Shown here: one piece after another, positions 1-50,048 of the stretch
Numbering within the stretch: the first letter of the stretch is position 1
How the letters are laid out: each line of letters starts with the position of its first letter
Sequence record: MH051918
Strand: one strand, 5' to 3'
Length of the DNA: 50,048 nt
From: Escherichia phage vB_EcoS_IME347
Notes under the pieces: model-generated
Told to the model about the DNA's origin: nothing
Database searches by the model: none
Seen by the model: only the letters and a program-made list of their open reading frames with translations
Program-made: the position numbers and the translations under genes

Positions 1-18
1 CCTACCGACTTTTCCGTT

Positions 19-36
19 TTTAGCAAAAAGTGCTAT
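19..36 (-). promoter_or_regulatory. box copy without a canonical -10 partner inside the window
   Basis: The plus strand reads TTTAGCAAAAAGTGCTAT, identical to copy 49862-49879. The expected -10 position would fall left of base 1. Confidence 0.4.
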
Positions 37-37
37 C

Positions 38-139
38 GTGACAAGATTACATTGACTCGCTGTATATCACTGTCTACAATTTCCCGGATTTGTCGGCGTG
101 ACAAAATTACACCTCGCGCCCCTGAGAGTGAGATTACAT
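38..139 (+). repeat. three direct GTGACAARATTACAY repeats
   Basis: GTGACAAGATTACAT at 38-52, GTGACAAAATTACAC at 98-112, GTGAGATTACAT at 128-139. Start-to-start spacings are 60 and 30 nt. Confidence 0.6.
52..80 (+). promoter_or_regulatory. sigma70-like promoter TTGACT-17-TACAAT
   Basis: TTGACT at 52-57, a 17-nt spacer, TACAAT at 75-80. Flanked by GTGACAARATTACAY repeats. About 365 nt upstream of the first ORF. Confidence 0.55.
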
Positions 140-418
140 AACTCTATGATATATATAATAATAATAGTTAAATTTTATCTTTTATATACATAAAATATTG
201 TATTGTCATTGTGGCGTATAGGGTGTACACAATGTATATCTCAGATTTCGTGAAAATGATAATTCATGGACATTTATACAGTACTCTATTTGCATATGCT
301 TATATAGGGAAAACACAGTGACATTGTATACAGTGTGTACACCGCAAAAAAATGCGCCGCGAGCCATTGTAAACGCTGGATTCTTATGTCAACATAGCCA
401 CTTATTGACGCCCCGATA
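70..418. repeat. control region copy A (colinear with 31182-31529)
   Basis: Shared boxes are CTGTCTAC (70), GGCGTGACAAAATT (95), CTTTTATATA (179), a 48-nt box at 311-358, AAACGCT (371) and TGACGCCCCGATA (406). Confidence 0.7.
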
Positions 419-450
419 CGGGCATAGACACTGTAACTAAGGAGCACGTT

Positions 451-4355: not shown

Positions 4356-4654
4356 ACAACTTGCACGAACTGAAGATTTTCCCGCGCCACTTCTACGGCG
4401 TGAAGATGGGGCAGAAGAAAGCAGAATTCAGGGTTGACGATCGCGGATTCAAAACTGGCGACACGCTCCGCCTTCGCGAATGGCACGAGGGCGACTTTAC
4501 CGGGCGGGAAATCAGCGTTGTGGTGACTGACGTAACCGACGTGACCGAGTTCATCAATCGGGCGAACGCCGAACTGTACAACGGGAACCGCTTCGTAATG
4601 CTGTCGTTCTTCGTGGTTCACGCGAGCCTTTGCGATATCCCGTACATCCGATAG
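4352..4654 (+). CDS. ASCH/DUF3850-like protein, 100 aa
   Basis: HELKIFPRHFYGVKMGQKKAEFRVDDRGFKTGDTLRLREW matches my memory of the DUF3850/ASCH N-terminal pattern. ATGA overlap. Its stop is the TAG of box 4651-4668. Confidence 0.65.
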   Translation: MNNLHELKIFPRHFYGVKMGQKKAEFRVDDRGFKTGDTLRLREWHEGDFTGREISVVVTDVTDVTEFINRANAELYNGNRFVMLSFFVVHASLCDIPYIR

Positions 4655-4694
4655 CACGAATTGCTAAAACAATAATCCGGGGCTATGCCATAAT
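4651..4694 (+). promoter_or_regulatory. box/-10 promoter cassette
   Basis: Box ATAGCACGAATTGCTAAA. Inverted repeat GGGGCTAT/ATAGCCCC. 22 nt spacing to TGcCATAAT (hexamer 4689-4694). Confidence 0.65.
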
Positions 4695-6590: not shown

Positions 6591-7174
6591 TGAGCAAAGT
6601 AATCATTCTCAACGCGCCGCCAGCATGTGGCAAAGACACGATAGGTTCAATCATCGCGGATATGAATCAGATTTATGGCGTTCGCATGTTGAGCTTCAAA
6701 GCGCCGATGTTCGAGATCGCCCGAGCTATCCTCGGTGATGCGAACTTTGATTATTTCATGTTCCTTTATAACGATCGGCTCCATAAGGAAAAGCCCGATT
6801 CCATTCTGAACGGTAAAAGCCCGCGCGAGTTCATGATCTGGATTAGCGAGGCAATCATTAAGCCAGAATTCGGCAATGATTATTTCGGGCGTCGAATGGT
6901 TGAGGCTGTCAAGTCAGGCACTGCCCCGGCGATTATCACGGACGGCGGATTCACTGAAGAGACAATCGCACTAATTGAAGCTGGTATTCAGGTTCACGTC
7001 TGCCGACTGCACCGCGACGGATTCACGTTTGAAGGCGACTCGCGAAACTATCTTCACCTGCCTGTGGGCTGGCAAGGCGTAAACGGCTACACCGAAGAAG
7101 ATTTCCAGTTACGTGACGGTGATCCTGATTACACTGCCAGCGTGATTACCGGGAAATACCTGCGTCACTTCTAA
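6590..7174 (+). CDS. P-loop kinase, dNMP-kinase-like, 194 aa
   Basis: Walker A in NAPPACGKDT. The overall pattern (GKDT...ITDGGFTEE...RDGD) recalls T4 gp1-type dNMP kinases. TAATG coupling to the HAD gene. Confidence 0.6.
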   Translation: MSKVIILNAPPACGKDTIGSIIADMNQIYGVRMLSFKAPMFEIARAILGDANFDYFMFLYNDRLHKEKPDSILNGKSPREFMIWISEAIIKPEFGNDYFGRRMVEAVKSGTAPAIITDGGFTEETIALIEAGIQVHVCRLHRDGFTFEGDSRNYLHLPVGWQGVNGYTEEDFQLRDGDPDYTASVITGKYLRHF

Positions 7175-7217
7175 TAGCACGAATTGCTAAAAACTCGGCG
7201 GGGTAAGCTGTTATAGT
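7174..7217 (+). promoter_or_regulatory. box/-10 promoter cassette
   Basis: Box ATAGCACGAATTGCTAAA. Inverted repeat GGGGTAA/TTACCCC. 22 nt spacing to TGtTATAGT (hexamer 7212-7217). Confidence 0.65.
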
Positions 7218-9580: not shown

Positions 9581-9598
9581 ATAGCACGAAATGTTAAA
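9581..9598 (+). promoter_or_regulatory. box copy in the terS leader
   Basis: ATAGCACGAAATGTTAAA lies between TGaTAAAAT (9574-9582) and the GGAGGA RBS. No -10 lies 22 nt downstream. Confidence 0.45.
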
Positions 9599-9614
9599 CA
9601 TCGGAGGACGTTTT

Positions 9615-10139
9615 ATGGAACGGAAAGAGAAAGCGCCCGTAGTGCAGGGCGGTAATTTTAAGGAGCTATACCGAAAGAAATTCGGAACGATTATCGGAAA
9701 ATCAGCCAGCTTCACGCCTGAACAGGTTTTCGATCTGGCGGTGAAGTATTTCACGTGGGCGGAGGACAACGCAATTAAAGCCTCTGAGACAGCGAGTTTT
9801 CAGGGTGAAGTGGAGGAGTCACTCGTTCATAAACCGCGCGTGTTTACTCACAACGGCTTCCGCCTGTTCCTTGGGATCAGCGAGTCGGCGGTCACGAAGT
9901 GGCGGCGACAGGAAGATTTCGCAGAGGTGATGGAGTTCGTTGATACGGTAATCAGCGAGCAGAAATTCCAGCTTGCAGCTAACGGCGTGATTAATGCCTC
10001 GTTCATCGGGAAAGACTTGGGGATCGACAAGCCAGCGACAATCAACATCGACAACCAAGCGAACGCCACGGCGGGCGCGATCGCCTCCACTGAGTCCGCG
10101 ATGCGCGATGCGGTAGAGAGTATTCTGGATAACCTTTAA
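9615..10139 (+). CDS. terS: terminase small subunit (putative), 174 aa
   Basis: Track ORF 9591.. trimmed to ATG 9615 (GGAGGA 6 nt upstream). Sits immediately upstream of terL. Size and N-terminal region are typical of phage small terminases. Confidence 0.6.
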   Translation: MERKEKAPVVQGGNFKELYRKKFGTIIGKSASFTPEQVFDLAVKYFTWAEDNAIKASETASFQGEVEESLVHKPRVFTHNGFRLFLGISESAVTKWRRQEDFAEVMEFVDTVISEQKFQLAANGVINASFIGKDLGIDKPATINIDNQANATAGAIASTESAMRDAVESILDNL

Positions 10140-10144
10140 TCTTC

Positions 10145-10163
10145 GGGCGGTTCGCCGCCCTTT
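10145..10163 (+). other. GC hairpin between terS and terL (weak terminator/attenuator)
   Basis: GGGCGG-ttcg-CCGCCC followed by only TTT, then a GGAG RBS. Confidence 0.4.
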
Positions 10164-10172
10164 GGAGTTTTC

Positions 10173-11744
10173 ATGTTAGTGTGGGAAGAACTGGACGCAA
10201 CGCAAAAGCTTGCGATCAAGAAAATGAGCGAGGCAAGTTTCGAAAAGATGATTCGGATCTGGTTTCAGCTTATTCAGGCGCAGCAATTTAAACCTAACTG
10301 GCATCACCTTTACCTTTGTCACGAGGTGGAGGAAATCATCGCCGGGCGGCGCGGGAATACGATCTTCAACGTAACGCCGGGTTCCGGTAAAACCGAAGTG
10401 TTTTCGATTCACCTCCCTGTGTACGCGATGCTTCGCGTGAACAAGATCCGAAACCTGAACGTGTCGTTTGCCGATAGTCTCGTCAAGCGTAACAGCAAGC
10501 GAGTGCGAGAAATCATCGCATCGAAAGAGTTCCAAGAGTTATGGCCTTGCGGGTTCGCCACGTCCAAAGATGATGAAATTCAGGTTCTCAATCAGGCTGG
10601 CAAGGTGTGGTTCGAACTGATATCCAAGGCGGCTGGCGGACAAATTACGGGTTCTCGTGGTGGCTACATGAGCGACGGATTCTCCGGGATGGTGATGCTT
10701 GACGATATCGACAAGCCGGACGATATGTTTTCCAAGGTCAAGCGAGAGCGTACACACACGCTCCTGAAGAATACAATCCGAAGCCGAAGGATGCACAACG
10801 AAACGCCGATTATCGCCATACAGCAGCGCCTACACGCGCAGGATTCGACGTGGTTCATGATGTCGGGCGGAATGGGGATAGACTTCGAACAGATCTCAAT
10901 CCCGGCTCTCGTTACTGAGGAATACGGGCAATCGCTTCCTGAATGGTTACGCCCTCACTTCGAGAAGGATGTTCTCTCGTCCGAGTATGTGATGATAGAC
11001 GGAGTGAAGCATTACAGCTTCTGGCCTGACAAGGAATCTGTTCACGATCTGATTGCATTGCGAGAGGCAGACCAGTACACGTTCGACTCGCAGTACCAGC
11101 AGCGCCCGATCGCGCTTGGTGGCTCCGTGTTTAACTCGGAGTGGTGGACGTACTACGGAAACAGCCTTGAGGCTGACGAACCAGATCCCGGCAAGTTTGA
11201 CTATCGTTTCATTACGGCTGATACCGCTCAGAAAACAGGTGAGCTTAATGACTACACTGTATTCTGTCTTTGGGGTAAGAAAAACGATAAGGTGTACTTT
11301 ATCGACGGGGTTCGCGGAAAGTGGAAAGCGCCGGAAATGGAGACTCAGTTTAAATCATTCGTTAGCACGGCATGGCGTCACAATAAGTCGATGGGCGTAC
11401 TCAGAAAAATCTACGTGGAGGATAAAGCGAGCGGGACGGGCTTGATTCAGAATCTGGAGAAGAAAACTCCCGTCCCGATCACGCCATTGCAGCGAAATAA
11501 GGATAAGGTTACTCGCGCGATGGATGCGCAGCCAGTAATCAAGGCCGGGCGCGTTGTTCTGCCTGAATCGCATCCTATGCTTTCCGAAATCATCACGGAG
11601 CATAGCGCATTCACATACGACGACACGCACCCTCACGACGATATTGTCGATAACTTCATGGATGCGGCAAACATCGAACTTCTGACGATAGACGATCCTA
11701 TCGAACGAATGAAACGCCTTGCGGGAATGGCAAAGCGCAAGTAA
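10173..11744 (+). CDS. terL: terminase large subunit, 523 aa
   Basis: Walker A in VTPGSGKTE, Walker B-like MVMLDDID, and a C-terminal nuclease-type acidic region. Sits upstream of the portal gene. Confidence 0.9.
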   Translation: MLVWEELDATQKLAIKKMSEASFEKMIRIWFQLIQAQQFKPNWHHLYLCHEVEEIIAGRRGNTIFNVTPGSGKTEVFSIHLPVYAMLRVNKIRNLNVSFADSLVKRNSKRVREIIASKEFQELWPCGFATSKDDEIQVLNQAGKVWFELISKAAGGQITGSRGGYMSDGFSGMVMLDDIDKPDDMFSKVKRERTHTLLKNTIRSRRMHNETPIIAIQQRLHAQDSTWFMMSGGMGIDFEQISIPALVTEEYGQSLPEWLRPHFEKDVLSSEYVMIDGVKHYSFWPDKESVHDLIALREADQYTFDSQYQQRPIALGGSVFNSEWWTYYGNSLEADEPDPGKFDYRFITADTAQKTGELNDYTVFCLWGKKNDKVYFIDGVRGKWKAPEMETQFKSFVSTAWRHNKSMGVLRKIYVEDKASGTGLIQNLEKKTPVPITPLQRNKDKVTRAMDAQPVIKAGRVVLPESHPMLSEIITEHSAFTYDDTHPHDDIVDNFMDAANIELLTIDDPIERMKRLAGMAKRK

Positions 11745-29714: not shown

Positions 29715-30053
29715 TTACATGATGGTTACTTTGTTGTCGTCTTTCATTTTTCGTGAAGTCTGTGTAGCGATCAGGTCGTCATATCCCATCTTTCCTTTGT
29801 TCCAGTGAAAGACGGTATTGTAGACGCCGGAATCTTTATAGCACATTACATGTACGTTCTTACGCAGGTGCTTGTCGAAAATCACGTTGTCTGATTGGTT
29901 GATCGTCACGGTCTTTTCGGCGCAGTTGATTGTAGCATGAGTCGAACCGTTCAGAGAGAGGCGGCTGGCGTCAACCGGATATCCGATATTTGCATTGAAT
30001 GCCATAGCGTTAAAAGAAGCTGTGAACATGATAGCGGCGATGATTTTTTTCAT
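29715..30053 (-). CDS. secreted/periplasmic protein with signal peptide, 112 aa
   Basis: MKKIIAAIMFTASFNAMA|FN is a type I signal peptide with no lipobox Cys. Has its own early-type cassette 30085-30128. Convergent with the J-like gene. Confidence 0.75.
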   Translation of the reverse strand: MKKIIAAIMFTASFNAMAFNANIGYPVDASRLSLNGSTHATINCAEKTVTINQSDNVIFDKHLRKNVHVMCYKDSGVYNTVFHWNKGKMGYDDLIATQTSRKMKDDNKVTIM

Positions 30054-30084
30054 TGGTGTTTCCTCGTTTCGTTTTGATGAATGC

Positions 30085-30128
30085 AGTATAGCCCCGTTTC
30101 CGGGGCTTGTTTTAGCAATTCGTGCTGT
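30085..30128 (-). promoter_or_regulatory. box/-10 promoter cassette
   Basis: Read on the minus strand: ACAGCACGAATTGCTAAA. Inverted repeat GCCCCG/CGGGGC. 22 nt spacing to TATACT. Drives the secreted-protein gene. Confidence 0.6.
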
Positions 30129-30778
30129 CAGTTGTAACCTTGGAATCTGGCATAAGGAATCTTGAGCCGTCCACGGCCTGAGAATATCTCAGCGAAAGAC
30201 TTCTGGTTATTCCTTATCCATGTTGTTTGCAACTGCGATCCCGTCCATCTCATTAGGTTCCCCGAGTAGCCAACGGCGAAACCGTCGTCACTCCACTGCC
30301 CGAAGCAGTTATTCCATAGGAAAAACGGGTTGAATCCCGGCGTCACCGACACGACCCGACCCTCAAGGTTTACGTTTCCGGCAACGTCAAGGAATCCCAT
30401 AATTCGAGGCATTGTCGCAGCGCTCGCGGCAGACCAGACAAGATTCCCGCTGGCGTCGAAAACGTCCAAGTAGCCCGACACGTTGGGCTTGTTTCTTGAC
30501 GTCCTAATTACCCTGATCGAGTTCGGAACGAACAGGTTCGCGCCGGGATATCCCCAACCGTTATTGGCGGTGAACTGAATCCAGTATAGATAACCATCCT
30601 CCCGCTTGAAATTGTAGTTCAGATAAGCGAGGGAGCTTACATTTCCAAATGGAGTTGACACGTTGTAATCGCCTGTATTCAACATTCCGGGCGTAACGAT
30701 GGAATCGAAAATCGTGTGTTTCTGATCGGAGTTGATCAGGACTACCCCGGCGTCATTCAAAACCTCAAAACCTGACAT
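30128..30778 (-). CDS. putative tail fibre / receptor-binding accessory protein, 216 aa
   Basis: Track ORF with an AAGGGGGA RBS. The N-terminal motif GFEVLNDAGVVLINSD recurs inside the protein (DVFDASGNLVWSA) and in the next gene. Confidence 0.55.
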   Translation of the reverse strand: MSGFEVLNDAGVVLINSDQKHTIFDSIVTPGMLNTGDYNVSTPFGNVSSLAYLNYNFKREDGYLYWIQFTANNGWGYPGANLFVPNSIRVIRTSRNKPNVSGYLDVFDASGNLVWSAASAATMPRIMGFLDVAGNVNLEGRVVSVTPGFNPFFLWNNCFGQWSDDGFAVGYSGNLMRWTGSQLQTTWIRNNQKSFAEIFSGRGRLKIPYARFQGYN

Positions 30779-30787
30779 AATTCCCCC

Positions 30788-31096
30788 TTAGTTGAACATG
30801 TAGACTTCTACGTATAGCGTGAGATCCACCGATGGATTTCTCCCCGGAACGTAGATGATATCAATGCCTCCCGATCTGCACACGGGGGCGTAATCGGTAA
30901 CGTATGTCGCTCCGAGGTTCGCACCCATCACGGAGGCGAACGAATTCGAATCCGTCACTCCCGCGATATTTAGCTGAACCCTGTCAACCGATCGCGGAAA
31001 GCTGACATTATACCGCCCGACAAATCGGGTGCTGTAATCACCGAGATCGACAACGAGATTTCCCGAAGCGTCCCAACATTGCAAGCCAGCCGCCAT
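30788..31096 (-). CDS. putative tail fibre accessory protein, 102 aa
   Basis: Track ORF with a GGGAGGAAAA RBS. N-terminus GLQCWDASGNLVVDLGD is paralogous to the 30128-30778 product. Sigma70-like promoter 31128-31156 upstream. Confidence 0.55.
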   Translation of the reverse strand: MAAGLQCWDASGNLVVDLGDYSTRFVGRYNVSFPRSVDRVQLNIAGVTDSNSFASVMGANLGATYVTDYAPVCRSGGIDIIYVPGRNPSVDLTLYVEVYMFN

Positions 31097-31127
31097 AGCA
31101 TTTTCCTCCCAAAATTAATGAATACAC

Positions 31128-31156
31128 ATATTAGCTTTTTGCCCTCGGGGAGTCAA
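31128..31156 (-). promoter_or_regulatory. sigma70-like promoter TTGACT-17-TAATAT (leftward fibre-accessory operon)
   Basis: Read on the minus strand: TTGACT (31156-31151), a 17-nt spacer, TAATAT (31133-31128). About 30 nt before ATG 31096. Confidence 0.6.
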
Positions 31157-31344
31157 AGTTACAGATTTTGCGGTGTAACATCTGTCTACTTTTGTAACCA
31201 AAATGAGGCGTGACAAAATTCGCTCATTTTTTAATCAGCATGACGCACCTTAAGATATAGAAAACTCCTTATAATATATATAGATAGATATAAATTGTTA
31301 TTTTACCTTTTATATATAAATTAGAGGTGTAACCGTTGTATATA

Positions 31345-31368
31345 TTGTCACGGTGTATTTTGTGATGC
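31345..31368. repeat. 24-nt box ATTGTCACGG-N3-ATTTTGTGAYG, copy 1
   Basis: Inverted half-sites GTCAC-N10-GTGAT (31347-31366). Confidence 0.55.
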
Positions 31369-31497
31369 GCTCAATTTTCTACATCATAATCATGTGAATT
31401 CTGTATTGCGGTATTTTTCTATAAACACAGTTACATTGTATACAGTGGTTACGCCGCAATAAAACACGCCTCAAACGCTTGATATTTATGGACTCGC

Positions 31498-31522
31498 ATT
31501 GTCACGGGTAATTTTGTGACGC
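31498..31522. repeat. 24-nt box, copy 2 (perfect GTCAC-N10-GTGAC)
   Basis: GTCAC at 31501-31505 and GTGAC at 31516-31520. About 30 nt upstream of the -35 of promoter 31552-31579. Confidence 0.55.
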
Positions 31523-31551
31523 CCGAATACACTCATTGACATCGTTACAGG

Positions 31552-31579
31552 TTGACTAAATGCCGGGAATGGTTATACT
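31552..31579 (+). promoter_or_regulatory. sigma70-like promoter TTGACT-16-TATACT (exo-erf-ssb)
   Basis: TTGACT at 31552-31557 and TATACT at 31574-31579. About 30 nt before ATG 31610. Confidence 0.6.
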
Positions 31580-31609
31580 GTCCACATCATCAACGAAGGA
31601 GATAAACGA

Positions 31610-32686
31610 ATGTTCAAGGTATTCACGAATGACCAGCTTTCTAACGACGCATATCACGATCCTGAAGGTTGGGCGGCGGAGTACGTAAGCGGCTCAAGCC
31701 TCGCAGAAATCTTCAATACCTGCCCTGCGAACTGGCGGTTCAAGAAGAACGAGATCACAAAGGCTCTTGAGTTCGGTACTCAGTCACATACGAACTTCGA
31801 AAGCAAGGCTCTGTTTGAGGCGTCATATAAGCGCTGCCCTCACCCGAAAGAGTTTAAGGATCTGATTACGTCACAGTCGGCTCTCGCTGCGAAATTAAAA
31901 TCATTCGGCCTGAAAGGTACGAGCGGCAAGCAATATCCCGATCTGATTCGCATGATGGTTGATTGCGGTGAAATGCTCAACGTGCAATGGCTAATTGAAA
32001 TGATCGCGGAAGCGGAAGCGCGAGCGGAAGGAAAGAAACTTGTGGACGCCGAAGCATACGACGCTTGCGTAACAATGCGCCAAGTTCTGGAGAACATCCC
32101 CGAGCACAACGCTTGCATTAACAGCCCAACGGCGATGCATGAGGTTTCAATCTTCGGGGTGATTTCAGGAGTCAAAGTCAAGGTTCGCTTAGACCATCTG
32201 GATTTCGCGGAGAACGTTCAGGCGCGTGTCCTGACTGGTTTCAACAACGAAGGCGAACCAGAATACGAAGATGTGATTTACCCTGAAGCTCTCGTGATTA
32301 CCGATTTCAAGACAACCCAAAGCGCTAACCCGATGGAGTTCCCGAGGCTCGCGTTCAACCACGGCTACTACCTGAAAATGTCACTACAACATGACCTGCT
32401 CAAGCGAGCGATTCAGGCCGGAGCGTTCGAAGGGGTGAGCAAGGACATTCCTATTATCGTTCGCCTACTCGCTCAGGAGAAGAAAGAGCCTTATCTGCCT
32501 CTTGCGTACCGCATGACGATGGAGCAGATCAGGATCGGGCGTCAACAATATATCAGCGTTGTCCACACGTTTAAAGAGTGCTTGGAGTCAGACGTTTGGC
32601 CTTCATACGCTAACGGAGCGGCAGAGGTTGAACTGGAAACTCCGAAGTTCGTTCGCTACCAGTATGATTCACGTTGCAGCATGTAA
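31610..32686 (+). CDS. PD-(D/E)XK recombination exonuclease (RecE/Cas4-like), 358 aa
   Basis: The D...(D/E)xK pattern appears in VRLDHLD...VITDFKTTQS. Sits upstream of erf and ssb. Confidence 0.7.
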   Translation: MFKVFTNDQLSNDAYHDPEGWAAEYVSGSSLAEIFNTCPANWRFKKNEITKALEFGTQSHTNFESKALFEASYKRCPHPKEFKDLITSQSALAAKLKSFGLKGTSGKQYPDLIRMMVDCGEMLNVQWLIEMIAEAEARAEGKKLVDAEAYDACVTMRQVLENIPEHNACINSPTAMHEVSIFGVISGVKVKVRLDHLDFAENVQARVLTGFNNEGEPEYEDVIYPEALVITDFKTTQSANPMEFPRLAFNHGYYLKMSLQHDLLKRAIQAGAFEGVSKDIPIIVRLLAQEKKEPYLPLAYRMTMEQIRIGRQQYISVVHTFKECLESDVWPSYANGAAEVELETPKFVRYQYDSRCSM

Positions 32687-35879: not shown

Positions 35880-36824
35880 TTAGATTAAATCCGATGCCTG
35901 ATAAAGCTTGCGTTCCATTCCTGACCGGAAACCTCCCGGATTCGGGATTATCACCTTCAACTCCCGATCGTCCGCCATATACAGAGCTTCCTTATCATCC
36001 GGCGAACATGCAACGCGCAACTCCCTTCCTCCTCTGTACCTGTATGCAACCATTTCCAGATTGGCAGGGGTGAAGCACGTCCACACCTCCTGCCCCGTCG
36101 CAAGGTGTACTCGCTGCGAGTCAATCCAATCAACGCAAAGGTAAATCGCCTTCTCAGTAGAACCTGTCACGGCAACCGATCCGGCAGTGTGCTTCCTTGC
36201 ATAGAACGACTGCTCCCCCTCCTCATTAATGAATAGGATATTGCAAAACTCGTCGTCCAATTCATCTTCATGAACAAGGTGGCATGGAATGGCATGAATT
36301 ACCGATTCTCCGCCATTCTCCAGCGACTTCACGCCTACGGAGTACATCTTATCATCTGGTAGGAAGATCCCCTCATACGTGCTCAGTGGCGTCGTAGGGC
36401 GTAGTTCTGTCCTTTCCATTACAGCCGCGCAAGCCTCATGCTCTGCGATCGCAGCATTCACTACGGCAACCGGAGTGCGGCGAGCCTTTTTATTCGCCTT
36501 GACAATATACTCCTGCGGAACTTTACCCAAGAATCTCCCGGCAATATTGATTGCTTCGCTGTAGTCAGACCCGGAGAGTTTCATTAGCCAGCCGATACCC
36601 GTGTCGTTACCGCACGAGTTGCACACCGCGCCGCCGTCGCCCGGCTCATTTAGTTTATCAGTCCAGCGAAATCGATCTTTACCTCCGCAGTTTGGGCAAG
36701 GCTGGTGTTTCTTGTTAAAAACGTCGTTAGGTAGTCCGCAAACACTCTGCAAGATCTCACGCCACAGCCCTTTCATGTACGGAAGAACATCTTCTTTCTG
36801 GTACTGCATAAAGTTCTCGTTCAC
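35880..36824 (-). CDS. DNA primase (zinc-ribbon + Toprim-like), 314 aa
   Basis: HQPCPNCGGKDRFRW...CNSCG is a P4-alpha-type primase zinc ribbon. GTG start after GGAGA. Cassette 36857-36900 upstream. Confidence 0.75.
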   Translation of the reverse strand: MNENFMQYQKEDVLPYMKGLWREILQSVCGLPNDVFNKKHQPCPNCGGKDRFRWTDKLNEPGDGGAVCNSCGNDTGIGWLMKLSGSDYSEAINIAGRFLGKVPQEYIVKANKKARRTPVAVVNAAIAEHEACAAVMERTELRPTTPLSTYEGIFLPDDKMYSVGVKSLENGGESVIHAIPCHLVHEDELDDEFCNILFINEEGEQSFYARKHTAGSVAVTGSTEKAIYLCVDWIDSQRVHLATGQEVWTCFTPANLEMVAYRYRGGRELRVACSPDDKEALYMADDRELKVIIPNPGGFRSGMERKLYQASDLI

Positions 36825-36873: not shown

Positions 36874-36900
36874 CTTTTGTGTTTTAGCTATTTGTGCTCT
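36857..36900 (-). promoter_or_regulatory. box/-10 promoter cassette (primase)
   Basis: Read on the minus strand: AGAGCACAAATAGCTAAA. 22 nt spacing to TAAACT. The hexamer lies in the loop of CGCGTA/TACGCG, which is followed by T6. Confidence 0.55.
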
Positions 36901-37327
36901 CGACTTCATCCTTTCGAACTACGCGCATGAACTTGCGGTTCTTGCATCGTTTTTCAAGGCACTTTCCGTTAGAGTCGAACTTGAGATCGAATCGCAGCCA
37001 GCTTGCGCGATACCCGGTACAACCCTGACGACGATACGCGCGATGCGCCGCCTCCGCTCCCTGCCAAGAAATCATGCCGCGAACTTTCCATTCGTTCACA
37101 TTCTGATTTGTTACCTTCAGGGCTTTCGCCGTGGCGGAGGGGGAGCCGTAGAATTCGATCAGGGCGTCAAGTCTGGCGCGTAGTCCGGCGCGAACCTCAT
37201 CTTTCAGGATGTAGAATCCGCATCGCTTGCGAGGCTTTACATCTTTGCCCCGTCGTGTACCATTGTTCCCGTTCAGGTGACGACGATCGATTTCCCCGGT
37301 TGATTCTGCAATACGCTTGATTGTCAT
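36884..37327 (-). CDS. HTH DNA-binding protein (YdaS/Cro-like) with basic Cys-containing C-terminus, 147 aa
   Basis: SATAKALKVTNQNVNEWKVRGMISWQGAEAAH resembles the YdaS/Cro-type HTH. Its last codons (AGC ACA AAT AGC TAA) form box 36883-36900. Confidence 0.55.
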   Translation of the reverse strand: MTIKRIAESTGEIDRRHLNGNNGTRRGKDVKPRKRCGFYILKDEVRAGLRARLDALIEFYGSPSATAKALKVTNQNVNEWKVRGMISWQGAEAAHRAYRRQGCTGYRASWLRFDLKFDSNGKCLEKRCKNRKFMRVVRKDEVESTNS

Positions 37328-39954: not shown

Positions 39955-40668
39955 ATGAAAGATATCGAAGATATTTCAACGATCGACTTTGCGGAAACTG
40001 GATGTTCATTTACTCGCGAAGCGCTGGCGGTTTCCGGGTATTATTCAGCGGTTAAAACTCCAACCTGCAAAGAAATCTCAGGCCGCAGATACAAGGGAAC
40101 CAATACGCCGGACGCCGTTCGCGATCTGTGGAGCACTTCTCGCGAGGTCATTGCGTACATGGAAGGCAGATATGGGAAATATGATCTTGACGCTGCGGCG
40201 AGCGAAGATAATAAGGTCTGTGAGAAATTCTACTCACAGGAAACTAACTGCCTAAAAAGATGGTGGGGCAAGAACAAGCACGTTTGGCTGAATCCGCCAT
40301 ACAGCCGCCCGGACGCCTTCGTTAAAAAGGCTATTGAGCAAATGGAGCACGGAAACCAAATTGACATGCTTCTGCCCGCCGATAATTCTACGGCATGGTT
40401 TACTGAGGCTCGCCGTAACGCTGCGGAAATCATCTGGATTGAAGGCGATCTTTATCAGGATCTTGACGGTACGGAATACTCCCGTTCAGGACGTTTGGCC
40501 TTCATTTCTGGTGAAACCGGAAAGCCAGTTGACGGCAACAATAAAGGCTCTGTTATCTTTATCATGCGCCAACTCGCGGAAGGTGAGAAGCAGAAAACCC
40601 ACTATGTCAGCATTGCGGATATTTGCCCGTCCGTTAAAAACAAACGCGCAAGAGCGAGGAATATCTAA
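39955..40668 (+). CDS. dam: DNA N6-adenine methyltransferase (phage Dam family), 237 aa
   Basis: The catalytic NPPY motif appears in VWLNPPYSRP. The family pattern is that of phage Dam methylases. Confidence 0.8.
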   Translation: MKDIEDISTIDFAETGCSFTREALAVSGYYSAVKTPTCKEISGRRYKGTNTPDAVRDLWSTSREVIAYMEGRYGKYDLDAAASEDNKVCEKFYSQETNCLKRWWGKNKHVWLNPPYSRPDAFVKKAIEQMEHGNQIDMLLPADNSTAWFTEARRNAAEIIWIEGDLYQDLDGTEYSRSGRLAFISGETGKPVDGNNKGSVIFIMRQLAEGEKQKTHYVSIADICPSVKNKRARARNI

Positions 40669-41737: not shown

Positions 41738-42877
41738 ATGTCAATGTCAAAAATCACAACCGAACAGCTTATCGAAGAGCGCGAAAACGGCCTGACCCTT
41801 CGCGAGATCGCGGAGAAGTACGGGATGCATATCCGCACGGTTGAGGCTCGACACGCGAAGCTTGCAAAGGAAGGTCACTTCCACGGCAACAAGCACGTAG
41901 CCGCCAACGTTCCGACCGGGTTCGCCGTAAAAGGTACGTCCGTCATGATTGACGCCGAAGGCAACGAAAAGGTTCGCTGGGTTAAGACCGATCAGGACAA
42001 AGAGAAGATTTACCAACTCATGCAAGCGGCGCAGGTTGCATTTTGCGAAGAGTTGCCGCGCGAAGCCCCAACCCCGATCGAAATAAACAAGCGATTCGAC
42101 GAGGATTCGCTGGCGCTTTACCCGGTATTCGATCTTCATATCGGCGCACTGGCGCACAAGCACGAGTCCGGCGAGAACTACTCCACCGATATCGCGGAAG
42201 ATGTTCTGAACAAGTATTTCGGCTATGCAGTCGGCAAGGCTCCTAACGCACAAAAAGCCGTCCTGTTAATCGGCGGTGACTTCCTGCACTCTGACGGCCT
42301 TGACGCTGTTACCCCGGCAAGCGGTCATGTTCTGGATCAGGACTCGCGTTATGCCAAACTGGTTTACGTCGCAATCCGCGCTACTCGCCGGGCGATCGCT
42401 AAGATGCTGGAGAAACATGCTGAGGTTGAGGTTCAGATTATCGAAGGCAACCACGATCAGGCAGGTATGATTTGGCTACGCGCTGCAATGGCGGCATACT
42501 ACGAGGACGAGCCGCGCGTGAACGTTGACGTTAGCCCGATGATTCTGCACAAAACCCGTTGGGGCAAAACGCTGTTAGGCTACACTCACGGTCACACGAT
42601 GAAGAAAGCGGACACTCGCCTTGCAGCAATGGCGGCAGACTTCCGCGATGATTTCGGCGCGAGCAAGTACGTTTACACTCACAGCGGTCATTGGCATCAC
42701 CAGACGATCACCGAGCATACGTTGGGTATCGACGAGGTTCACGGTCAACTCGGGGCGAAGGATGCTTATGCGGCTCGCGGCGGCTGGCGAGCGTACCGTC
42801 AAGCGGCTGTTATCGTGTACTCAAAAGAGTTTGGCGAGATCGGGCGCTTTATCTACCGTCCAGAAATGACGGCGTAA
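41738..42877 (+). CDS. HTH + calcineurin-like metallophosphoesterase fusion, 379 aa
   Basis: N-terminal LTLREIAEKYGMHIRTVEARHAKL looks like an HTH. Phosphoesterase motifs DLHIG, GGDFLH, EGNHD, YTHGH and HSGHWHH follow. Confidence 0.7.
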   Translation: MSMSKITTEQLIEERENGLTLREIAEKYGMHIRTVEARHAKLAKEGHFHGNKHVAANVPTGFAVKGTSVMIDAEGNEKVRWVKTDQDKEKIYQLMQAAQVAFCEELPREAPTPIEINKRFDEDSLALYPVFDLHIGALAHKHESGENYSTDIAEDVLNKYFGYAVGKAPNAQKAVLLIGGDFLHSDGLDAVTPASGHVLDQDSRYAKLVYVAIRATRRAIAKMLEKHAEVEVQIIEGNHDQAGMIWLRAAMAAYYEDEPRVNVDVSPMILHKTRWGKTLLGYTHGHTMKKADTRLAAMAADFRDDFGASKYVYTHSGHWHHQTITEHTLGIDEVHGQLGAKDAYAARGGWRAYRQAAVIVYSKEFGEIGRFIYRPEMTA

Positions 42878-44477: not shown

Positions 44478-44675
44478 TTCGTACCGGGTAGCGCTCAGAA
44501 TGCAAATTCCGTCGTCGTCTGCGAGGTTGTGACACTTCGCGCCTGATGCCCGCATAGACGACAGGAGGAGCGAAAGTATCGCTGTATTAAACTCCTCCTC
44601 ACTGAGCTTGTGCCTTGCGCACAATTCTACGTTCGAATCTATCAACATTTCTATTCTTGCCGAAGAGTTCTTCAT
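44475..44675 (-). CDS. hypothetical small protein, 66 aa
   Basis: Track ORF with ATG 44675 lying 7 nt after GAGGAA. Overlaps the 3' end of the upstream gene by 77 nt in another frame. Confidence 0.5.
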   Translation of the reverse strand: MKNSSARIEMLIDSNVELCARHKLSEEEFNTAILSLLLSSMRASGAKCHNLADDDGICILSATRYE

Positions 44676-44991
44676 CACTCAATTCCTCAATATGCATCAT
44701 TTCCCACGTATAGCGATTGCGATATCCCTCAAGGCAAGCGAATTGCATCATCACCGGGCGCTTACGCTTCCCTTTGCAGAAGTATTCCTGACCAACCCGA
44801 TCCAGATACCCCTCAGTCATGCAGCGAGCGCAAAACTCCTTTGACAACGCACTCGTGAAAGTGCGCTTATCAAGATCTGCATTTCGTGCCATACGCTCAG
44901 TTTCTGGATGCCCGTAAATGAACCGGGCAATATGCTGACGTGTGTACTTGTCGTAACCCTCACAGAATTTGAACAGGTCAAGCAGAATCAT
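44599..44991 (-). CDS. hypothetical Cys-containing protein, 130 aa
   Basis: Track ORF. ATG 44991 is preferred over GTG 44994, with AAGGTG upstream. Follows the DUF3987-like gene. Confidence 0.65.
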   Translation of the reverse strand: MILLDLFKFCEGYDKYTRQHIARFIYGHPETERMARNADLDKRTFTSALSKEFCARCMTEGYLDRVGQEYFCKGKRKRPVMMQFACLEGYRNRYTWEMMHIEELSDEELFGKNRNVDRFERRIVRKAQAQ

Positions 44992-45003
44992 CACTTCATC
45001 ACC

Positions 45004-46566
45004 TTACATTAAGCGCGGATTGATATAAATGTTGTCGTCCACACGGCAAACGTAATTCATGCTTTCCAGCGTTTCCAGCAACGTTTCGATACGCTCCGCA
45101 ACCTTTTGCTGCCCGTTAAACGGAGTGACGTTCCGGCACTTCGCGATCACGCTCTGAATCTGCGCCCGGCCTTTGTTCTTTTTGGCGATCTCACTAACCA
45201 CGTCGATAAGCTTGCGTGATTCAGCTTCATCACCTGCGAAACCTGCGGCGTTTGCAGACGAGAGATAAGTTTTTGACAACTCGTTAAACGTCATGATCGC
45301 TTCCTGCATTGTGTCCAAGTCGATCTCACGATTCGCCCGGTTCGGCTTCTCACCAGCCCAATTCTTGATCGTGTGAATCACGGACGCGATACGAATTACG
45401 TGTTTATCGAATTTCCCCAAGTGACCGCGCAACATGGAGTGTGAGTATTTCCCGCCCGCCGCGAAGCTGGCTTCCATATCCTGACGAGCAAGGTTCAGCG
45501 CTCGGGTTGCGTGAAGGCTCAGGCTGAAAACTACCTTCTCTTCGTTCATGACGTTATGAACGAGGCGGTAATATTTGCTCACGAGCGCCTTGTCAACTGG
45601 CTTGTAAACTGCGTCGCCGTTCTCGTCACACAATACGCGAGTACCCAAACGAGGCTCTTCGCGAACCAGTAAGAAACGCTCGGAAACACCGATACCGCGC
45701 TGACCTGCATCCATGATGCCCTTGATTGTTTCGTCCTGCGCGATTACGCAAATTGCACCAACCGGACGTAAAGAAAGGTTGTTGTCCTGATTGGATCGAG
45801 CTACTTCCATATGGTTCATATCCCAAGCCTTCAGGATTAGCTCGCTGTTCGACTTCTTATCAGTCCCGCCATACGTCAAACCGAGAAGTGTATTGATTGC
45901 CGTCGCTTCGTCCGAGATAACGGAGAAGTTACCCTGAATCGCCGCAACCTTAGCCAAACCCTCTGGAGTAGGATCGGAAACCGCAAACACAACGTTAGCA
46001 GCCTTTTTGAGCTTCTCTTCGATTTTCTCCTTCTCTTCGTACAGGGCAACCATTGAGTTTCCTTTTACGTCGTTCTTGATCTCCTTTTCGATCTTGCGGA
46101 GTTCCCCGGCGAGGCGTGAACGTTCGGCCTTACGCTTCTCGTTGATGCGGTCAATCTCTGCTCGCATCGGGTTAATGGCTGCGGAGTTGATCGCAGATTT
46201 ACCCGTTGACGGCGGCTGGCTGATTACCATGTAAAGTGCGGTTGGCTGCTCTTCACCGTGATAGTCAACCCAAAAGCGACCGAGCATCGCGGCGGACATA
46301 CATCCGATAAAGTGAGCGTATGCGGACGAAACCGGGAATTGCACTGATTCAGCTTTAGCCTTTGCGTATTCGTAAACGAGGTTATCGCCACCGAGGGAAA
46401 TCAACGGAAAACGATCGTTGCCGCTGTTAATCTCTTCGGGCTTATCCCAAAAAGCAAATGAATCCGAGAAGCCGTTTTCGCGAATAGCGATCGCCACCGG
46501 ATTTACTCCAGTAGCTGCGGCGATTTCTTGGATCTGATTGATGGAAAGTTTATTTTGGAAGAACAT
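45004..46566 (-). CDS. DUF3987-like P-loop protein (putative replicative helicase/primase-associated), 520 aa
   Basis: Walker A-like ISQPPSTGKS, preceded by a long N-terminal domain. AAGGAG RBS. Cassette 46595-46638 upstream. The family assignment is from memory of the DUF3987 pattern. Confidence 0.55.
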   Translation of the reverse strand: MFFQNKLSINQIQEIAAATGVNPVAIAIRENGFSDSFAFWDKPEEINSGNDRFPLISLGGDNLVYEYAKAKAESVQFPVSSAYAHFIGCMSAAMLGRFWVDYHGEEQPTALYMVISQPPSTGKSAINSAAINPMRAEIDRINEKRKAERSRLAGELRKIEKEIKNDVKGNSMVALYEEKEKIEEKLKKAANVVFAVSDPTPEGLAKVAAIQGNFSVISDEATAINTLLGLTYGGTDKKSNSELILKAWDMNHMEVARSNQDNNLSLRPVGAICVIAQDETIKGIMDAGQRGIGVSERFLLVREEPRLGTRVLCDENGDAVYKPVDKALVSKYYRLVHNVMNEEKVVFSLSLHATRALNLARQDMEASFAAGGKYSHSMLRGHLGKFDKHVIRIASVIHTIKNWAGEKPNRANREIDLDTMQEAIMTFNELSKTYLSSANAAGFAGDEAESRKLIDVVSEIAKKNKGRAQIQSVIAKCRNVTPFNGQQKVAERIETLLETLESMNYVCRVDDNIYINPRLM

Positions 46567-49794: not shown

Positions 49795-49835
49795 GAGTTG
49801 CTCCGTTGTTTTGTGTGCTTCGTTTCGATGAGTGT

Positions 49836-49879
49836 ATTATGCCAAACCAAGCCGATCGATGTTTAGCAAAAAGTGCTAT
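49836..49879 (-). promoter_or_regulatory. box/-10 promoter cassette
   Basis: Read on the minus strand: ATAGCACTTTTTGCTAAA. 22 nt spacing to TGgCATAAT. No clear inverted repeat. First leftward promoter of the right arm. Confidence 0.6.
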
Positions 49880-49894
49880 TCCTGAAATTGTCGA

Positions 49895-49925
49895 TTATTC
49901 CACCGATTCTGGAATAACTGGAATA
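49895..49925. repeat. inverted repeat TTATTCC-N9-GGAATAA plus direct CTGGAATA x2
   Basis: TTATTCC at 49895-49901 and GGAATAA at 49911-49917. A second GGAATA lies at 49920-49925. Confidence 0.5.
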
Positions 49926-49927
49926 CT

Positions 49928-50012
49928 TGATGATTACTCATGATTGCAAATGACAAGTTGTGATTATTGCGTGATGTGGAATGATTGCTGTGATTGTTGC
50001 TTGTAATGCAAT
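49928..50012 (+). repeat. phased TGAT(T/G) repeats
   Basis: TGATT or TGATG occurs near 49931, 49941, 49961, 49971, 49982 and 49991, mostly in steps of 10-11 nt. Followed by TGTAATGCAATGAATG. Confidence 0.5.
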
Positions 50013-50048
50013 GAATGTGGAGGGGAGATTATTATGATGCGCTCCTCG

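Follow-up and report, generated by a model that had tools for sequence, protein, structure and literature searches.

The genome of Escherichia phage vB_EcoS_IME347 carries two non-coding modules, A and B, of ~450-500 bp each, which are, judged by alignment, true paralogues, and which we tentatively read as origin-type modules that may well be the replication origin(s) of the phage. As candidates they are the best yet for an origin in the T1 family, with a gene-regulatory role as the main alternative. The window analysed here (50,048 nt) is the complete genome of this T1-like phage (Drexlerviridae), opened circularly inside an intergenic region of ~700 bp. The true intergenic region A consists of 49795-50048 and 1-450 joined across the window ends, the feature of the preliminary description being cut short by the window start. 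Wrapped in this way, it is colinear in alignment with intergenic regions that lie internally in Sfin-3, BIFF, ADB-2, IME18, ISF001 and Logan contigs. A near-identity DNA search with region A gave no close match among deposited phages, and a search in distant mode matched ISF001/ISF002 and T1-type records only. The stretch flagged as origin-like in the preliminary description, 38-215, is the core of module A. The parts of region A are the following.

49795-50048, unstranded: left part of region A, divergent intergenic, running on into window position 1
Within 49795-50048: leftward promoter cassette
49877-49925: quartet of two TATTCC and two GGAATA
49960 and 49990: GTGATTRTTGC repeats
1-450, plus strand: module A, the right part of region A, paralogue of module B by local alignment and by a six-way alignment with T1 and SRT8
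19-36, minus strand: family-wide box ATAGCACnnnTTGnTAAA, a palindrome TAGCA-N5-TGCTA, directly adjoining repeat 1
38-52, plus strand: repeat 1, 15 nt, GTGACAAGATTACAT, its last base being the first base of the -35 hexamer
52-80, plus strand: rightward, near-consensus sigma-70 promoter TTGACT-17-TACAAT
98-112, plus strand: repeat 2, 15 nt, GTGACAAAATTACAC, at about +11 to +25 of the promoter at 52-80, homologous to GTGACAAAATTCGC at 31210 in module B
128-140, plus strand: third copy, 3 nt shorter (without CAA), GTGA---GATTACATA (also given as GTGA---GATTACAT), weakly conserved
141-207, unstranded: A/T block of module A, 87% A+T, with a TATGAT hexamer at its left edge
209-437, unstranded: right flank of module A, with TGTNNN-type elements in both orientations
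222-238 and 327-343: 17-nt inverted pair in the right flank
313-343: S6 block of module A, nearly identical to 31424-31455

Module B is intergenic as well, with these parts.

31097-31609, plus strand: module B, between the leftward gene 30788-31096 and the exoVIII-erf-ssb operon, homologous to T1 30008-30388
31128-31156, minus strand: leftward promoter-like site TTGACT-17-TAATAT
31251-31325, unstranded: A/T block of module B, 85% A+T, with TATAAT at its left edge (31270-31275)
31347-31366, unstranded: box GTCAC-N10-GTGAT
31424-31455, unstranded: S6 block ACACAGTTACATTGTATACAGTGGTTACGCC, which changes in concert with 313-343
31501-31520, unstranded: box GTCAC-N10-GTGAC
31552-31579, plus strand: promoter TTGACT-16-TATACT of the exoVIII-erf-ssb operon, conserved across the family

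The local alignment of A with B scored 69, compared with 21.9 ± 2.6 in shuffles (z ~18), and when both modules were aligned the order of the blocks was the same across the window, T1 and SRT8. In each module, short TGTNNN-type elements (~10-16 per module) in both orientations stand on either side of a block of ~65-75 bp made almost entirely of A/T. Both modules were found in T1, SRT8 and TLS, the last of which belongs to a different subfamily, and the architecture of module B stands upstream of exoVIII in all 42 of 42 related Drexlerviridae contigs. The A/T block of module B is largely conserved across the Tunavirinae compared and includes several invariant runs.

The A/T blocks at 141-207 and 31251-31325 are both present as the preliminary description gave them. 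In genome-wide scans of the window, T1 and SRT8, they are the two least stable duplexes of 60-100 bp (z 5-6), clearly set apart from the third. In the window, the lowest duplex stability over 60 bp is reached inside 141-207, at -54.2 kcal per 60 bp compared with a genome mean of -83.8 (sd 4.8), and the second lowest inside 31251-31325. Of the ~32 kb of TLS that were scanned, the two blocks are likewise the least stable parts. The hexamer TATATA has nine copies in A and B together and none elsewhere in the genome. A regulatory role alone would leave unexplained why these two blocks rank lowest in stability in each of the three whole genomes scanned (window, T1, SRT8).

Three direct repeats at 38, 98 and 128 had been described on one face of the helix, bracketing a strong promoter. 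Exact 14/15-nt copies do occur at 38 and 98, but the copy at 128 lacks 3 nt. The pattern GTGACAARATTACA, with at most one mismatch, has two sites in 50 kb (38 and 98), compared with 0.04 expected, and two matches were reached in none of 100 shuffles. Repeat 1 is unchanged in close relatives except for one A/G change; the third copy differs in the close relative L104 and has no clear same-position counterpart in T1 or Sfin-3. The common helix face holds only approximately, because spacings of 60 and 30 nt correspond to 5.7 and 2.9 turns at 10.5 bp per turn. Sfin-3-type relatives carry a 10-bp deletion between copies 1 and 2, with the phase preserved. Comparison of relatives gives (A)AATTACR, rather than GTGAC, as the core that the 15-mers conserve.

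The promoter TTGACT-17-TACAAT is found at 52-80, bracketed by the repeats as described, and is one of seven sites in the genome that agree with the sigma-70 consensus at 10 or more of 12 positions. It is kept at this position in relatives, as TTGATT-17-TATGAT in T1, TTGACC-17-TACAAT in ADB-2/ISF001 and TTGTCA-17-TAGAAT in the Sfin-3 type. It is probably the immediate-early promoter of the left operon, and the first ORF starts at 451, in agreement with the ~365 nt given earlier for the distance from the promoter. The neighbouring box at 19-36 has a -10-like hexamer off the standard distance; a box motif of the ATAGCACnnnTTGnTAAA type has been described (PMC11447400).

The same arrangement bears on the main rival of the origin reading, a serious one even though we consider it somewhat doubtful, namely that the modules form an operator field, controlling transcription of the two rightward early operons and of their divergent neighbours. 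With a phage repressor or activator bound at the 15-nt repeats and the TGTNNN elements, early transcription would be timed or shut off, perhaps with looping, and the A/T block would be bendable or UP-like DNA or an activator-dependent promoter. Repeat 1 adjoins the -35 hexamer of the 52-80 promoter and repeat 2 spans about +11 to +25; such bracketing is typical of operators, and for this reason the operator field stays a serious rival. Both modules lie between divergent operons and hold two of the seven sites with at least 10/12 agreement to sigma-70; their location, the very one to be expected of promoters and operators serving divergent early operons, counts against the origin reading. The TATAAT or TATGAT at the left edge of the A/T block, kept in all modules including those of TLS, also agrees with a regulatory role. 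Most sites, however, lie 100-450 bp from any promoter, and 230-290 bp separate the exoVIII promoter from the A/T block upstream of it, too great a distance for a UP element.

GTGAC-type repeats had been taken as the signature of both regions. This fits region B, for which more than ten GT(G/T/A)AC elements had been counted: GTNAC occurs 11 times there, compared with 2.0 expected, a number reached in 0 of 1000 shuffles and the densest cluster in the genome, with four copies to the left and seven to the right of the A/T block. It does not fit region A, where the four GTNAC copies are matched by 114 of 1000 shuffles and are thus not enriched, and the dominant hexamers are TATACA and ATTACA. The two boxes described for region B are both present, as GTCAC-N10-GTGAT (31347-31366) and GTCAC-N10-GTGAC (31501-31520). 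They consist of inverted half-sites, as used by dimeric regulators, and GTNAC sites at 31501-31550 stand immediately upstream of the exoVIII promoter at 31552; both observations favour the operator field.

The origin reading gains from the way the flanking hexamers vary. At six or more homologous positions they shift in concert by lineage, being TGTAAC in T1, TGTAAT in SRT8 and TGTTC in TLS. Within Tunavirinae, A and B differ partly in their hexamers (TATACA/ATTACA in A, GTTACA/GTGACA in B), a point against an origin, and region B of SRT8 has ATTACA where the window has GTTACA/GTGACA. TLS-type modules carry a GTGAACA/TGTTCAC element. Within a genome, A and B have near-identical S6 blocks, which differ from one genome to another; the S6 block in region A of the close relative L104 also differs. 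In the window, GTGACAAAATT is confined genome-wide to A and B. Exact copies of GTGACAAAATT and TGTATACA were sought in the modules of relatives and none was found, and this failure of exact motif transfer led to the recognition that the motif changes by lineage. Region B of the close relatives L104-L129 (Logan, ENA) was too similar to add footprinting power. A repressor and its operators would be expected to show such a concerted change by lineage just as well.

The lineages with differing hexamers (T1, SRT8 and TLS) infect the same host, E. coli. Because the hexamers differ in concert between phages of one host, the sequence comparison points to a phage-encoded protein rather than a host protein as their reader. 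This bears directly on a third explanation, in which the modules would be a platform for host factors: H-NS, IHF, Fis or OmpR-like proteins would bind the A/T blocks and the TGT/ACA elements and set promoter strength or DNA architecture, with no dedicated phage protein. DNA with (TA)n runs and extreme A/T content, such as the A/T blocks, is a typical target of H-NS or Fis. Elements like GTAACATCT presumably resemble OmpR half-sites, and module B contains one IHF consensus match (31472-31484). Module A contains none, DnaA boxes are absent from both modules, and a fixed host specificity is incompatible with hexamers that differ in concert among E. coli phages, which leaves a host platform disfavoured and, in our estimate, very unlikely.

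With a phage-encoded reader in mind, three genes of the phage are considered here.

45004-46566, minus strand: MCM-like AAA+ helicase (DUF3987, SF6) that carries a winged helix at its C terminus, encoded in the leftward operon beginning at region A
35880-36824, minus strand: DnaG/T7-type primase with a zinc ribbon
36884-37327, minus strand: conserved Cro-like helix-turn-helix (HTH) protein, phrog_2856

The proteins encoded at 36884-37327, 41738-42877 and 45004-46566 had been proposed as binders of the repeats, and only the last is retained, as a putative one. The product of 41738-42877 is a DNA-repair exonuclease family protein (phrog_704) and was dropped as a DNA-binding regulator. The HTH protein is an unlikely reader of the region-B hexamers, since the window and SRT8 have the same HTH motif but different hexamers; it is a candidate binder of the TAGCA-N5-TGCTA boxes. 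It is also the only recognisable regulator, so that its failure to vary with the hexamers weighs against the operator field.

The C-terminal winged helix of the helicase is the best candidate for a hexamer reader. The helicase was assigned by a fold search, and it combines the features of the SaPI type: an AAA+ domain, the pre-sensor II insert of the MCM clade and a C-terminal winged helix (see also PMC4889955). A sequence search with it against solved structures returned nothing significant. Its last 80 residues are ~80% identical to T1 compared with ~70% to SRT8, whereas the remainder is closer to SRT8. This T1-likeness parallels the hexamer class of region B, which gives a weak hint of a connection. 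Among 28 paired genomes, winged helix and hexamer class were consistent with each other, in a comparison that is confounded by phylogeny, contains one informative genome (the window) and is not statistically significant. On the 3' side of the helicase gene lie a 131-aa ORF (44599-44994) and then the lysis genes. Two distant phages with DUF3987 helicases of 35% identity have a helicase-first operon headed by an intergenic region of 560-690 bp, which is supportive but weak evidence. In one of them, CTTACA/TGTAAG occurs ten times in the intergenic region, compared with 11 times in the other 21 kb, together with an A/T-rich centre. In the other, the A/T-rich centre is surrounded by four to five repeats of the CTTACC type, of which three are CCTTACCG. 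A point against the origin reading is that in L212, a distant phage, other parts of the locus are less stable than the central region.

Two further explanations concern region A in the first place. If the 52-80 promoter yielded a 365-nt leader or a stand-alone non-coding RNA, the function would lie in RNA structure. The stretch is long and holds no conserved small ORF, it contains the 17-nt inverted pair 222-238/327-343, and its fold z-score is -1.96, which is marginal. The inverted pair is not kept in the relative L104, no terminator is present, and the repeats occur in both orientations. Module B and the TLS module A have no upstream promoter and would not be transcribed alike, which argues against an RNA function. 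Rfam gave no match in 1-600 and only a chance-level mir-221 (E 0.99) in 31000-31700, and a literature search for Drexlerviridae transcriptomes found none. We regard a structured RNA as having hardly any probability.

A packaging signal is likewise highly improbable. Region A would then be or contain a pac site read by the small terminase, with repeats around an A/T cleavage region as in P1 pac, and module B would be a degenerate duplicate. Headful packaging from a pac site is established for the family (PMC11447400), many T1-like records, the window included, open inside region A, and one T1 record annotates a terminal repeat 1-2800 that starts there. A record start is a convention, however, and the records open at different positions. 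A second, equally conserved copy 31 kb away is unexpected for a unique pac, the terminase genes lie ~10 kb away (9591-11744), and in TLS pac was sought by restriction mapping, outside this region (PMC11447400).

The origin reading carries forward part of the preliminary description, in a changed form. It draws on the paralogy, the conservation, the least stable A/T blocks, the lineage-specific hexamers and the MCM-like helicase, and it no longer includes classic iterons or conserved transcription. For the iterons, the modules have no tandem, regularly spaced repeats of 17-22 bp; the repeats are short, irregularly spaced and in both orientations. Neither DnaA boxes nor a GATC cluster occur in A or B, and none of the 23 proteins scanned matched the Rep or lambda O family. 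As for transcription through the A/T block, the promoters of module B and of the TLS module A lie beyond the block, so transcription into it is not conserved. The position of the promoter relative to the block varies while the block and its flanks are conserved, which also speaks against the operator field. The cumulative GC skew turns at A and B, but its sign follows gene orientation with equal magnitude on both strands, and it was set aside as uninformative. A literature search found no replication origin reported for T1 or Drexlerviridae, and the 2024 re-annotation of TLS found no origin-like repeats (PMC11447400).

At such an origin, the short repeats would be landing sites for a phage-encoded protein, and the A/T block would be the site of duplex opening and helicase loading, as in SaPI origins. 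Two distant copies with common repeats would parallel oriL and oriR of SPP1. The 15-nt repeats at 38 and 98, which bracket the 52-80 promoter, probably also modulate it. In the lineage of the window, the transcript from 52-80 crosses the A/T block and could aid its opening, as a lineage-specific extra rather than as part of the core mechanism. T1 needs recombination-dependent concatemer synthesis. A more specific version, which we think unlikely in its entirety, has two paralogous SaPI-like origins, at which the self-loading MCM-like helicase would read the lineage-specific TGTNNN hexamers via its winged helix and melt the (TA)-rich block. A would be the primary origin, and B, like SPP1 oriR, either a protein-bound barrier or a second origin that couples theta replication to recombination-dependent concatemer synthesis.

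T1 belongs to the original seven T phages and is notorious as a contaminant of laboratories, and two conserved modules of ~500 bp together with an MCM-like helicase turn the search for its origin into a concrete, testable one. If the reading is true, the SaPI/SCCmec-style self-loading MCM-like initiator would extend to virulent coliphages. The modules would then be the first origin defined for Drexlerviridae, with the first MCM-type initiator-helicase with an origin in a virulent phage that infects Gram-negative bacteria, and would offer a handle to engineer T1-like phages or to block them in fermentations. If the modules are operators instead, they would define the missing early-regulation circuit of the family.

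Among known systems, the operator clusters of lambdoid OR/OL and the mycobacteriophage stoperators resemble the modules in having multiple short sites, some with dyad symmetry, by early promoters and in two separate control regions. They differ in that no repressor gene is adjacent here, the sites spread over ~450 bp around an extreme A/T core, and the only HTH regulator does not covary with them. In lambda-type and plasmid iteron origins, as here, repeats adjoin an A/T-rich region, and 141-207 and 31251-31325 each provide an A/T-rich element of the unwinding type. In place of an array of three or more direct repeats of ~17-22 bp, there are two full 15-nt copies 60 nt apart and a truncated third, the rest being 5-6-mers, and the feature lies outside any initiator gene.

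The T7 primary origin and T4 oriF/oriG have a transcription-activated layout. Module A of the window and of T1 is similar, in that a promoter fires into an A/T-rich region 60-130 nt downstream; the arrangement is absent from all B modules and from the TLS module A, and, in contrast to T7 and T4, host RNA polymerase is used here. Satellite P4 has two separate cis regions, ori and crr, with a common short repeat TGTTCACC that is read by the C-terminal winged-helix domain of its primase-helicase. This repeat is very similar to the TLS-type GTGAACA/TGTTCAC. The P4 alpha protein is an SF3 helicase fused to a primase, whereas the MCM-like helicase and the primase of this phage are separate.

SPP1 has two distant origins made of repeats and an A/T-rich unwinding element (PMC6316719), and A and B likewise are two distant, similarly organised regions, each with an A/T-rich element and with repeats in common; both phages are virulent siphoviruses of the pac type. 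For SPP1, one of the two copies is proposed to assist the transition to concatemer synthesis, a process that depends on an exonuclease, an annealing protein and SSB (PMC6316719); here module B stands directly ahead of exoVIII-erf-ssb. SPP1 differs in having a dedicated origin-binding protein, gp38, of which no homologue was seen here, along with a loader and a DnaB-type helicase, and in that oriL lies inside gene 38 while modules A and B are both intergenic.

The SaPI systems are compared last. A SaPI has one origin, directly downstream of rep, whereas here there are two modules, A at the operon head 3.2 kb upstream of the helicase gene and B 13 kb off. The modules also have more repeats, which are mixed in orientation and do not all belong to one hexamer type; on either side of the A/T block both orientations are seen, with no clean convergent or divergent pattern. 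The host here is Gram-negative, the phage is virulent and the repeat-binding protein is putative. SaPI Reps are self-loading, and their C-terminal winged helix reads 6-12 penta- or hexanucleotide iterons on either side of an A/T region (PMC9371898). Short repeats of this size likewise stand on both sides of the central A/T-rich region in A and B, as GTNAC (4 + 7) in module B and as TGTNNN-type elements in module A. Like the SaPIs, this phage encodes its own AAA+ helicase, which is of the MCM-like clade and carries a winged helix at its C terminus, together with a neighbouring primase gene (PMC9371898).

The window carries the gene set of a T1-like siphovirus (terminase, portal, tape measure, exoVIII/Erf/SSB, primase, two helicases, Dam, and lysis genes), and its structural half shares ~78% nucleotide identity with the Sertoctavirus phages SRT8, IME-JL8, and BrunoManser. 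The window starts within an intergenic region. When 49795-50048 was joined to 1-453, the product aligned colinearly with internal 700-bp intergenic regions of Sfin-3, BIFF, ADB-2, IME18, and ISF001, and likewise with three metagenomic relatives, indicating that the record is a complete, circularly opened genome. Because it is opened inside a functional intergenic region, features at the window edge are split; several deposited T1-like records are opened no more than about 100 nt from the same place. The repeats, promoter, and A/T block flagged at 38-215 lie midway along a divergent control region of ~700 bp. The features bearing on the analysis are the following.

From 49794, minus strand: leftward operon left of region A, including the helicase gene 45004-46566
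From 451, plus strand: long rightward early operon right of region A
313-343 (region A) and 31424-31455 (region B): S6 block, 30-40 nt

Regions A (1-450) and B (31097-31609) align over their full length with a local score of 69, compared with 21.9 ± 2.6 for dinucleotide shuffles (z about 18), and are paralogous modules. Both follow the same block order: an ACAAAATT(A)C element, the A/T block, a TGTNNN group, the S6 block, and a TGACGCC element. Region B is homologous to T1 30008-30388, upstream of exoVIII, and 42 Drexlerviridae contigs, drawn from several subfamilies, have its layout ahead of exoVIII; module A also occurs in T1, SRT8, and TLS. The two 20-nt boxes (31347-31366 and 31501-31520) and the A/T block (31251-31325) described earlier for region B are present, and its GTNAC elements form the densest cluster in the genome (11 versus 2.0 expected; 0 of 1000 shuffles). 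In region A, GTNAC is not enriched, its 4 copies being reached in 114 of 1000 shuffles.

By nearest-neighbour energies, no other 60-bp or 100-bp stretch in the whole genomes of the window, T1, and SRT8 is as unstable as the two A/T blocks of A and B. They reach -52 to -57 kcal per 60 bp, the genome means being -81 to -84 (z 5-6), and a gap of 9-10 kcal separates them from the more stable third-ranked site. In TLS, nothing in the ~32 kb examined is less stable than the two blocks. The block sequence is largely kept within Tunavirinae, with several invariant runs, and every module, those of TLS included, has a TATAAT or TATGAT hexamer at the left edge of its block. TATATA occurs nine times in A and B together and is absent from the remaining 49 kb, which suggests that this easily melted or promoter-like sequence is selected against outside the modules. 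Its densest clusters in T1 and SRT8 likewise lie in modules A and B.

Repeats 1 and 2 (38 and 98), the promoter (TTGACT-17-TACAAT, 52-80), the A/T block (141-207), and the first ORF were found where the preliminary description had placed them. With at most one mismatch, GTGACAARATTACA occurs in the 50 kb at 38 and 98 only (0.04 expected), and GTGACAAAATT only in A (38, 98) and B (31210, 31510). The third repeat (128-140) exists, as GTGA-GATTACATA, but is three bases shorter and differs in the related contig L104; in the T1 and Sfin-3 alignments, nothing at its position clearly corresponds to it. The proposed placement on one helical face holds approximately, 60 and 30 nt being 5.7 and 2.9 turns at 10.5 bp/turn, and the phase is preserved in Sfin-3-type phages, where 10 bp are deleted between the first two copies. 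The promoter is among just seven genome sites matching the sigma-70 consensus at 10 or more of 12 positions, and relatives carry TTGATT-17-TATGAT (T1), TTGACC-17-TACAAT (ADB-2), or TTGTCA-17-TAGAAT (Sfin-3) at its position. Its firing into the A/T block is not a kept arrangement: in all B modules and in TLS module A, the consensus promoter is gene-proximal, about 290 nt right of the A/T block.

Repeat 1 adjoins the -35 element and repeat 2 spans roughly +11 to +25, an operator-like placement. Both modules also occupy precisely the positions in which divergent early operons must have their control regions, and the GTNAC elements stand just upstream of the exoVIII promoter (31552-31579). These features would suit a purely regulatory operator field, the main rival explanation, which we consider somewhat less likely than an origin role. 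A search of the 365-nt leader for an RNA family, a terminator, a conserved small ORF, and conserved RNA pairing found none of these.

The short repeats flanking the A/T blocks change in concert between phages. The dominant region-B hexamer is GTTACA/TGTAAC in T1-type phages (7 in 520 nt versus 3-6 in about 20 kb of flanks) and ATTACA/TGTAAT in SRT8 (10 versus 8 in the flanks), a difference seen at six or more homologous alignment positions. In the window, GTTACA and GTGACA dominate; Tempevirinae and related groups have GAACA/AACAAA-type sequences. The pattern is not uniform: Tunavirinae module A prefers TATACA, ATTACA, and TGTCTA rather than module B's hexamer, and the TGT/ACA core alone is common to all modules. 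S6 is near-identical between A and B inside the window and inside SRT8, yet different between phages, a pattern at sites 31 kb apart that looks like concerted evolution or gene conversion. T1 module A has three tandem CGATTAACA units in place of S6, and in region A of L104 its place is taken by unrelated sequence. Since phages with differing hexamers share a host, the hexamers are unlikely to be read by a fixed host factor; a phage-encoded protein with drifting specificity would be the simplest explanation. Most of the probability beyond the origin and operator explanations is divided among readings as a host-factor platform, a pac site, or an RNA.

Several further elements adjoin the modules. 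TATTCC occurs twice and then GGAATA twice in the left half of region A (49877, 49896, 49911, and 49920; 49877-49925), largely kept across Tunavirinae, and GTGATTRTTGC occurs at 49960 and 49990, 30 nt apart among many TGATTG/ATTGC elements, with partial conservation only. The sets at 49877-49925 and 49960-50000 may be another regulator's sites or pac-related. GATC occurs 284 times in the window, ~1.45 times the ~195 expected for 50 kb at 50% G+C, with none in module B and one in the 700-bp region A; the phage encodes a Dam methylase (39955-40668). Adjoining module B, three minus-strand ORFs at 29715-31096 (112 aa, 216 aa with DUF8377, and 102 aa) lack counterparts in T1 or SRT8, sit where T1 has the cor gene, and are probably a swapped accessory (moron) cassette.

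The window also contains 31 sites of the 21-nt Drexlerviridae repeat, a palindrome TAGCA-N5-TGCTA, for example:

969-986, 1234-1251, 4651-4668, and 7174-7191, plus strand: palindrome sites
47684-47667, 49879-49862, and 36-19, minus strand: palindrome sites

The TLS paper left its function open, offering only stoperator-, enhancer-, and UP-element-like analogies (PMC11447400). At most copies, a -10-like hexamer (TATAGT, TATAAT, or CATAAT) begins 19-21 nt downstream, centering the palindrome near -43. There is no -35, the -10 lies within a GC-rich hairpin, and a conserved leader (CACAtCgAAACGAAAC), a Shine-Dalgarno sequence, and ATG follow. The units, repeated ahead of most small early genes, look like activator-dependent promoter cassettes some 75 nt long and recall the PeSL cassettes of T4-type phages.

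Among the proteins proposed to bind the repeats, that encoded at 41738-42877 proved to be an exonuclease. The product of 36884-37327 (phrog_2856), a conserved Cro-like HTH protein, shares 94% identity with its SRT8 counterpart; its HTH motif is identical although the region-B hexamers differ, so it was rejected as the covarying factor. It is a candidate binder of the TAGCA-N5-TGCTA cassettes. The 131-aa product of 44599-44994 (minus strand; phrog_2794, no Pfam match), directly downstream of the MCM-like helicase, is another candidate binder of the module repeats; its counterpart, TLS gp70, is annotated as an HTH domain-containing protein in the TLS record.

The third protein, the MCM-like helicase 45004-46566, is the best candidate reader of the hexamers. 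It is a DUF3987 protein whose AlphaFold model (pLDDT 89) shows an AAA+ core and a C-terminal helix-strand-helix-helix-strand-strand winged helix, in agreement with Kazlauskas et al. (PMC4889955). Its last 80 residues match T1 at about 80% versus about 70% for SRT8, and the remainder is nearer SRT8. This parallels the T1-like region-B hexamers, a weak hint from sequence comparison that helicase and hexamers may be linked. In two distant phages whose DUF3987 helicases are 35% identical, a divergent intergenic region of 560-690 bp stands at the head of the helicase-primase-SNF2-exonuclease operon. One such region holds 10 CTTACA/TGTAAG compared with 11 in the other 21 kb; the other has four to five CTTACC-type repeats, three being CCTTACCG. 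In both, the repeats surround an A/T-rich center, which is the least stable stretch of the locus in one phage and not in the other, L212.

No DnaA boxes, GATC cluster, or tandem iterons were found in the modules and no Rep/O homologue among the proteins scanned, and GC skew merely mirrors gene orientation. No origin for T1 or its relatives is known in the literature searched, and the 2024 TLS paper reports none found (PMC11447400). The origin-like architecture first described is real and reaches far beyond 38-215, without tandem iterons or a kept promoter-into-A/T-block arrangement. Origin-type elements are the best-supported explanation of modules A and B, which we hold tentatively. The A/T block would serve for unwinding and the flanking short repeats for recognition, and the 52-80 promoter, together with the 15-mers that bracket it, would form module A's early-transcription component. 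If correct, a known kind of element is newly found in a classic phage family, and the proposal is directly testable. SaPI (staphylococcal pathogenicity island) Reps of the 45004-46566 type are self-loading initiator-helicases whose C-terminal winged helix recognizes 6-12 penta-/hexanucleotide iterons that flank an A/T-rich region on each side (PMC9371898). This is the layout of modules A and B, for which SaPI origins are the closest match, and oriL/oriR of the Bacillus phage SPP1 are duplicated as the two modules are (PMC6316719).
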